This document shows, one piece after another, positions 13,781 to 13,808 of a stretch of DNA of 64,000 bases. Location of the stretch: the IMG/VR virus record IMGVR_UViG_2690316121_000006; one strand, 5' to 3'. Numbering within the stretch: position 1 is the stretch's first letter; every line of letters starts with the position of its first letter. Source of the DNA: a virus. Its lineage: Duplodnaviria; Heunggongvirae; Uroviricota; Caudoviricetes. The notes below the pieces were generated by a model. That model was not told where the DNA came from, searched no databases, and saw nothing but the letters and a program-made list of their open reading frames with translations. The translations under genes were made by a program, and so were the position numbers.

Positions 13781-13808
13781 ATTACACTAATAAATTTATT
13801 AGAGCAAT
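13781..13808. promoter_or_regulatory. pair of overlapping, opposed C1-type operators (Op72-like) over a reverse-strand promoter
   Basis: ATTACACTAATAAATTT (plus, 13781-13797) and ATTGCTCTAATAAATTT (minus, 13792-13808, exact 17/17); the minus strand carries TTGCTC-17 nt-TAATAT -35/-10. Confidence 0.6.

Follow-up and report, generated by a model that had tools for sequence, protein, structure and literature searches.

Eight dispersed 17-bp sites in a P1-like phage-plasmid sequence, very probably operators of the C1 master repressor

The window and the ban locus

The stretch of DNA analysed here (the window) is 64,000 nucleotides long. It is the reverse complement of positions 82006–19221 of the phage P1 record AF234172, which it matches in blocks at about 94–99% identity with a few swapped modules between them. 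In a megablast search, positions 12500–15500 of the window are 100% identical to phage JL22 and 99.2% identical to P1, and about 1000 related plasmids are found. None of the best phage and plasmid records matches the window end to end. The window is a mosaic, because these records cover just 76–96% of 19–25 kb queries.

The site under study, positions 13781–13808, lies where the methylase gene dmt meets the ban operon (Table 1). Leftward from the promoter P1ban, this operon is composed of a leader hairpin, tRNA-Asn, tRNA-Thr, tciA/B/C, tRNA-Ile, and ban, which encodes a DnaB-type helicase. The site itself consists of two opposed 17-mers, Oban-a and Oban-b, which have 6 bp in common; together they make up a near-palindrome of 28 bp, whose 16-bp core, CTAATAAATTTATTAG, is perfectly palindromic. 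Such an overlapping pair had been described from the letters of the window alone; it is real, and the P1 record annotates it as the divalent operator Obanab. According to the positions in that record, the −35 hexamer of P1ban (TTGCTC, 13802–13807) lies within Oban-a, and the −10 hexamer (TAATAT, 13779–13784) reaches into Oban-b at its outer end. Oban-a also overlaps the end of dmt, namely its stop codon and the two codons before it; dmt ends at 13799. Because dmt ends inside the operator, the site stands at the end of the methylase gene and at the same time heads the helicase operon. The preliminary description of this DNA named both a helicase and a methylase operon as controlled by such sites; the methylase operon is headed by the site at 17314.

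In phage P7, which shares the immC system with P1, the same overlapping pair, Op(ban[a])/Op(ban[b]), is annotated at the end of the P7 dam/dmt gene, and the operator sequence does not differ among P1, P7, and the window. Among nine P1-type genomes, all 28 bp are invariant, with four of ten columns variable at the left edge and six of ten at the right edge, versus 14% of columns overall. Taken alone, this footprint is suggestive but weak, because 8% of 28-column windows of the alignment are invariant at the same divergence. The Oban-only footprint, too shallow for significance alone, was replaced by a comparison of all operators with the Escherichia albertii plasmid p2RM15113, which is presented below.

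The ban leader has features of its own. Just downstream of the P1ban −10 hexamer, an imperfect inverted repeat at 13748–13780 is predicted to form a 5′ hairpin of the leader RNA. It is followed by a GC-rich hairpin (GCCGCG…CGCGGC) within a 38-column run that is invariant in the nine genomes. The inverted repeat explains a weak operator copy that had been listed at 13749. This copy is one arm of the repeat and was rejected as an operator; it has 7 mismatches, as have 451 sites of the window in all, and is at the chance level. About 65–100 bp downstream of Oban (approximately 13682–13717), beside the 'dicF-like region', the leader occurs as two alleles. The P1-type allele is found in the window, P1, and two plasmids; the P7-type allele is found in P7 and four plasmids; and the predicted hairpins of the two differ. 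This allele difference may be a specificity determinant of the leader or of a small RNA.

Table 1. Sites, genes, and RNAs of the window, and positions of the D6 word in the D6 genome
Feature	Position	Strand	Remarks
Oppp (former Op83)	2556–2572	+	CATGCACTAATTAATTT; weaker; between pmgM and pmgN; 17.2–20.4 bits
O26 (former Op82)	3463–3479	+	divergent gene 26/pmgL intergenic region
ban operon	9626–13780	−	from P1 annotation, Rfam tRNAs, and tblastn
ban DnaB-type helicase	9626–10987	−	tblastn, 99.3%
tRNA-Ile	11272–11344	−	Rfam
tRNA-Thr	12975–13047	−	Rfam
tRNA-Asn	13053–13125	−	Rfam
Oban-b (former Op72b)	13781–13797	+	ATTACACTAATAAATTT; inverted partner of Oban-a
Oban-a (former Op72a)	13792–13808	−	perfect consensus; identical to P1 68667–68683
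Odmt (former Op68)	17314–17330	−	abuts Pdmt −35 (17309–17314); −10 at 17285–17290
Rep3-type initiator	19860–20744		followed by T5orf172-domain ORF
T5orf172-domain ORF	21037–21846
Ail/Lom-family outer-membrane β-barrel ORF	31033–31548	−	Pfam OMP_b-brl E=4e-25, Ail_Lom E=1e-22
OrepL (former Op53)	33386–33402	−	overlaps −10 of PkilA/P53 (33392–33397)
C4 antisense RNA	34790–34875	−	Rfam
c4-a1b1	34944–34996	−	Rfam; directly downstream of Oc4 with C4 RNA
Oc4 (former Op51)	35057–35073	−	overlaps −35 of P2c4/P51a (35053–35059)
Ossb (former Op21)	62189–62205	−	directly after P2ssb −10 (62206–62211)
D6 word (D6 genome)	197, 4630, 8918, 9074, 10323, 11366, 21268, 54209
D6 word (D6 genome), continued	64114/64137, 72929, 76638, 80730, 89946

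Operators at the other operons

Odmt heads uhr-hrdC-dmt, the methylase operon (17242→13802). OrepL heads kilA (33316→32519) and repL/oriL (32486→31647), which constitute the lytic replicon. Oc4 heads the antirepressor operon, composed of c4 RNA, icd, and ant1/ant2, in which Icd and Ant1 were found by tblastn. Ossb covers the −35 hexamer of P1ssb (62195–62200) and heads ssb (62169→61684). The helicase, methylase, lytic replicon, antirepressor, and ssb assignments made in the preliminary description match the P1 record.

The two remaining sites, O26 and Oppp, are located in the gene 26/pmgL–ppp–pmgQ region and run in the direction opposite to that of pmgL; the promoters that they would control are predictions only. 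O26 overlaps the predicted P2pmgL −10 and P1pmgL −35 hexamers and adjoins the late promoters LP26 and LPpmgL. Oppp has 4 mismatches to the consensus and follows the predicted PpmgN −10 at a distance of 13–29 nt. A 'takeover' operon had been listed among those controlled by the motif; this is not an established label and is not retained here. It had also been proposed that each of the main sites stands at the head of an early operon. This holds for ban, dmt, repL, c4, and ssb. The weaker site at 2556 is internal to its string of genes, between pmgM and pmgN.

A simple sigma-70 consensus scan of six loci recovered only P2pmgL and P1c4 among the annotated promoters. Because just these two were recovered, the overlap of sites with promoters rests mostly on the P1 record. 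The promoter hexamers transferred from that record are unchanged in the window. A promoter-like site at 3502→3475, near O26, was recovered independently.

Some of these loci have further features. Op68, Op53, and Op51 share a T-rich extension, nGTTTTnTAAGTnG, located 3′ of the 17-mer on the − strand (17298–17313, 33370–33385, and 35041–35056), in which 8–11 of 16 positions are identical. In the P1 record, this extension holds the Pdmt −35 and part of the P2c4 −35 and spacer. On the − strand, 3′ of Ossb (62172–62188), a partial inverted core, TTATTAG, resembles the second half of a bivalent operator but has 6 mismatches to the consensus. KilA and Ant1 have a common C-terminal domain that is approximately 52% identical (32528–33118 and 33490–34083, reciprocal tblastn).

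Motif enrichment in the window

The C1 operator consensus is the asymmetric 17-bp word ATTGCTCTAATAAATTT, and 22 C1 operators are dispersed over P1 (PMC8546580). At up to 3 mismatches, this word has 7 matches in the window versus 0.32 expected, and none of 100 shuffles reaches 7. The matches are at 3463+, 13781+, 13792−, 17314−, 33386−, 35057−, and 62189−, exactly where the preliminary description had placed them, each with at most 2 mismatches. One site (13792−) is a perfect match, four have 1 mismatch, two have 2, and none has 3. Sites with 4 mismatches number three, versus 2.8 expected by chance.

A position weight matrix (PWM) was trained exclusively on the 11 annotated P1 operators that lie beyond the P1 region spanned by the window. 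The seven sites score 20.7–26.0 bits in this independent matrix, and 2556+ scores 17.2 bits; the next-best match in the window is 12.8 bits, and the mean maximum in random sequence is 14.7 bits. A scan of this kind had been suggested in the preliminary description, and it separates eight sites from the background. The site at 2556, given there as a weak copy, is accepted as an operator because its PWM score, synteny, and conservation support it, despite a mismatch count that by itself is at the chance level. All eight sites are in, or overlap, intergenic gaps, and the downstream genes were confirmed by tblastn and Rfam. The sites are spread from 2.5 to 62 kb of the window, and single sites are asymmetric.

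Weaker matches at 20722, 41028, and 51301 (weak PWM or 4-mismatch sites) were rejected as operators; they lie inside coding sequence and have background scores. At 29878–29894 (+), a 17-mer, AATGTTCTAATAAACTA, bears a weak resemblance to the operators; it has 4 mismatches and scores 11.6–12.7 bits, which is the chance level. It is intergenic, 15 nt upstream of a swapped-in ORF (29910–30542). This 17-mer is kept in E. albertii, which is uninformative because the surrounding region is 98% identical. No additional credible operators were found in the swapped-in modules of the window.

Identity with the P1 operators

The curated record AF234172 annotates 20 monovalent 'phage repressor C1' operators, nine of which fall in the interval matching the window; the P1 operator set is that of Łobocka et al. 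(2004), as cited in PMC8546580. In a blastn coordinate map, all eight sites fall on 'phage repressor C1' protein_bind features of this record, and the sequences are identical. The window shares with P1 the 17-mer sequences, their positions and orientation, the neighbouring genes, and the bivalent geometry at ban. It differs from P1 by 1–6% in the operator flanks and lacks Orlf/Op55, one of the nine operators in the interval, together with rlfA/rlfB. In P1, heat inactivation of the thermolabile repressor C1.100 results in induction of ban, ssb, dmt, and kilA (PMC4713147).

As in the lambda OL/OR system, the P1-type system has a prophage master repressor that occludes early promoters. The lambda CI/Cro operators have two-fold symmetry, bind dimers, and are grouped at two loci next to the repressor gene. 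Unlike these, the sites of the window are asymmetric, scattered over more than 60 kb, and have no repressor gene nearby. Lambda-type symmetric CI operators were thus considered and rejected, given the asymmetry and dispersal of the sites and the lack of an adjacent repressor gene.

Comparison with relatives and other explanations

The C1 protein of E. albertii p2RM15113 is 98.2% identical to P1 C1. All eight sites are syntenic in this plasmid, which has 22 PWM matches in all. Only 1 of 130 operator bases is substituted, versus 48 of 840 flanking bases (±60 bp; Fisher one-sided p=0.0065). At Oppp, 16 of 17 bases are kept, and 12 of 120 flank bases are changed. This pattern of substitution indicates purifying selection on the operators throughout the family. 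The E. albertii record CP043252 has three icd–ant modules (35614, 42623, and 93832) with a P1-type C1 operator before each; the window has one such module.

The C1 homologue of phage D6 has just 20.8% identity with P1 C1. No P1-type site above background was found in D6. D6 has an asymmetric word of its own, TGTGTTAGAAAA (TTTGTGTTAGAAAAyTAA), at 14 places (Table 1), including positions upstream of c1, lpa, ref, hrdC-dmt (as an inverted pair), and icd-ant. As in the P1 type, a word of approximately 17 bp that is asymmetric is dispersed at equivalent operon heads; unlike in the P1 type, the sequence of the word is entirely different. The D6 words are probably the D6 immunity operators. The dispersed architecture is kept in D6 while repressor and operator sequence change together.

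This covariation bears on the question of which protein the sites serve. Binding by another regulator, such as Lpa or host IHF or H-NS, rather than C1 could be suggested by the position of O26 beside the Lpa-dependent late promoters LP26 and LPpmgL, and by the binding of H-NS to the ref regulatory region in P1 (PMC4713147). Such a reading is very improbable, since the P1 record annotates separate −22 boxes at the late promoters and separate IHF and LexA sites, and the motif tracks the C1 type across P1, E. albertii, and D6.

There is even less room for a reading of the 17-mers as AT-rich matches arisen by chance or as generic promoter elements (−10/UP-like). The seven sites with at most 2 mismatches stand against 0 expected, even though the motif is AT-rich, lies in promoters, and has common low-stringency matches (451 at 7 mismatches), and random sequence reaches approximately 14.7 bits. 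In the E. albertii comparison the operators are conserved relative to their flanks, and the motif is missing in D6, which has the same promoter-bearing operons and a different C1. Moreover, the sites occur at varied registers relative to the −35 and −10 hexamers, so a promoter element does not fit.

Equally hard to credit is the idea that the repeats have no common binding protein and were left behind by a promoter cassette that was duplicated and dispersed through recombination: Op51, Op53, and Op68 do share the T-rich downstream extension of about 16 bp (8–11/16 positions), but similarity ends at the 17-mer for most pairs, site orientation varies between loci, the sites are under purifying selection, the published C1 literature speaks against it (PMC8546580, PMC4713147), and the repeat is the 17-mer itself because the upstream flanks show no relation from one site to another, with just 7–15 matches in 35 positions.

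The evidence obtained here consists of motif enrichment, identity and synteny with the P1 operators, purifying selection, and repressor/operator covariation. It indicates that the sites are, with little doubt, operators for the C1 master repressor of a P1-family (Punavirus) phage-plasmid, eight out of a set of approximately 20–22.

Modules that differ from P1

Divergence from P1 starts right after the repL stop codon, and rlfA and rlfB are absent. The segment 29816–31708 replaces P1 rlfA, rlfB, pmgF, and Orlf/Op55. It contains an Ail/Lom-type ORF that begins 95 bp after repL, an ORF for an 83-aa membrane protein, and a 210-aa ORF of unknown type. The E. albertii plasmid CP043252 has the same Ail/Lom replacement arrangement as the window. 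On reading the sequence, no terminator was noticed between repL and the Ail/Lom gene. It is conceivable, though unlikely, that the C1 regulon has been remodelled here, so that the Ail/Lom gene would be co-transcribed from PkilA only on induction and the 17-mer at 29878 would be a new low-affinity site. If true, a virulence-type surface protein would be under the C1-gated PkilA.

Other modules of the window also differ from P1. Adjoining Oc4, a low-GC island (0.35) at 35278–37932 is found in place of P1 simABC. It is composed of four same-strand ORFs with signal-peptide or membrane character, and the sole Pfam signal is a C-terminal SH3_3 match, just below threshold, in a 355-aa ORF. The plasmid replication module (19653–21916) is unlike P1 repA/incA and encodes a Rep3-type initiator (Table 1). 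The segment 48245–51989 contains a tail-fibre C-segment with non-P1 variable ends and two U-like assembly genes, and is an alternative host-range cassette.

The repressor and a proposed mechanism

Searches with tblastn found no match to C1, Coi, or Lxc in the window. P1 c1 is located at 93231–94082, outside the covered span, in agreement with the preliminary description, which had placed the repressor gene elsewhere. Because c1 is not in the window, we infer the cognate repressor of this genome from its relatives. The roles of Lxc, Coi, and Ant, as well as C1 binding and the promoter positions, are taken from the literature or the P1 record. Lxc is a corepressor that forms a ternary complex, and Coi and Ant are antirepressors (PMC8546580).

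In the prophage state, C1 would be made from the immC region, outside the window, and would bind each asymmetric 17-bp site. C1 binds its operator as a monomer. Because, by the annotation of the P1 record, every site overlaps or abuts a promoter −35 or −10 hexamer, bound C1 would block RNA polymerase at these sigma-70 promoters. At Oban, two C1 molecules would cover both P1ban hexamers and keep the tRNA–tci–ban helicase operon off. The remaining sites would silence uhr-hrdC-dmt, kilA-repL, c4-icd-ant, ssb, and the gene 26/pmgL–ppp region. Lxc would tighten C1 binding, and Coi or Ant1/2 would inactivate C1. Since one protein would hold all of the dispersed sites, its inactivation would derepress every early operon together.

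Significance

The feature is no discovery; it belongs to the textbook P1 immunity system and has long been known. The result is a re-identification of this classical circuit in one of many Enterobacteriaceae P1-like phage-plasmids, and its novelty is little. Its use is in annotation: it establishes what the window is and which way round it lies, and gives names to the early operons and to the sites that control them. For the family, the comparison indicates that heteroimmune relatives such as D6 retain the dispersed-operator architecture while changing the repressor and the sequence of its sites.
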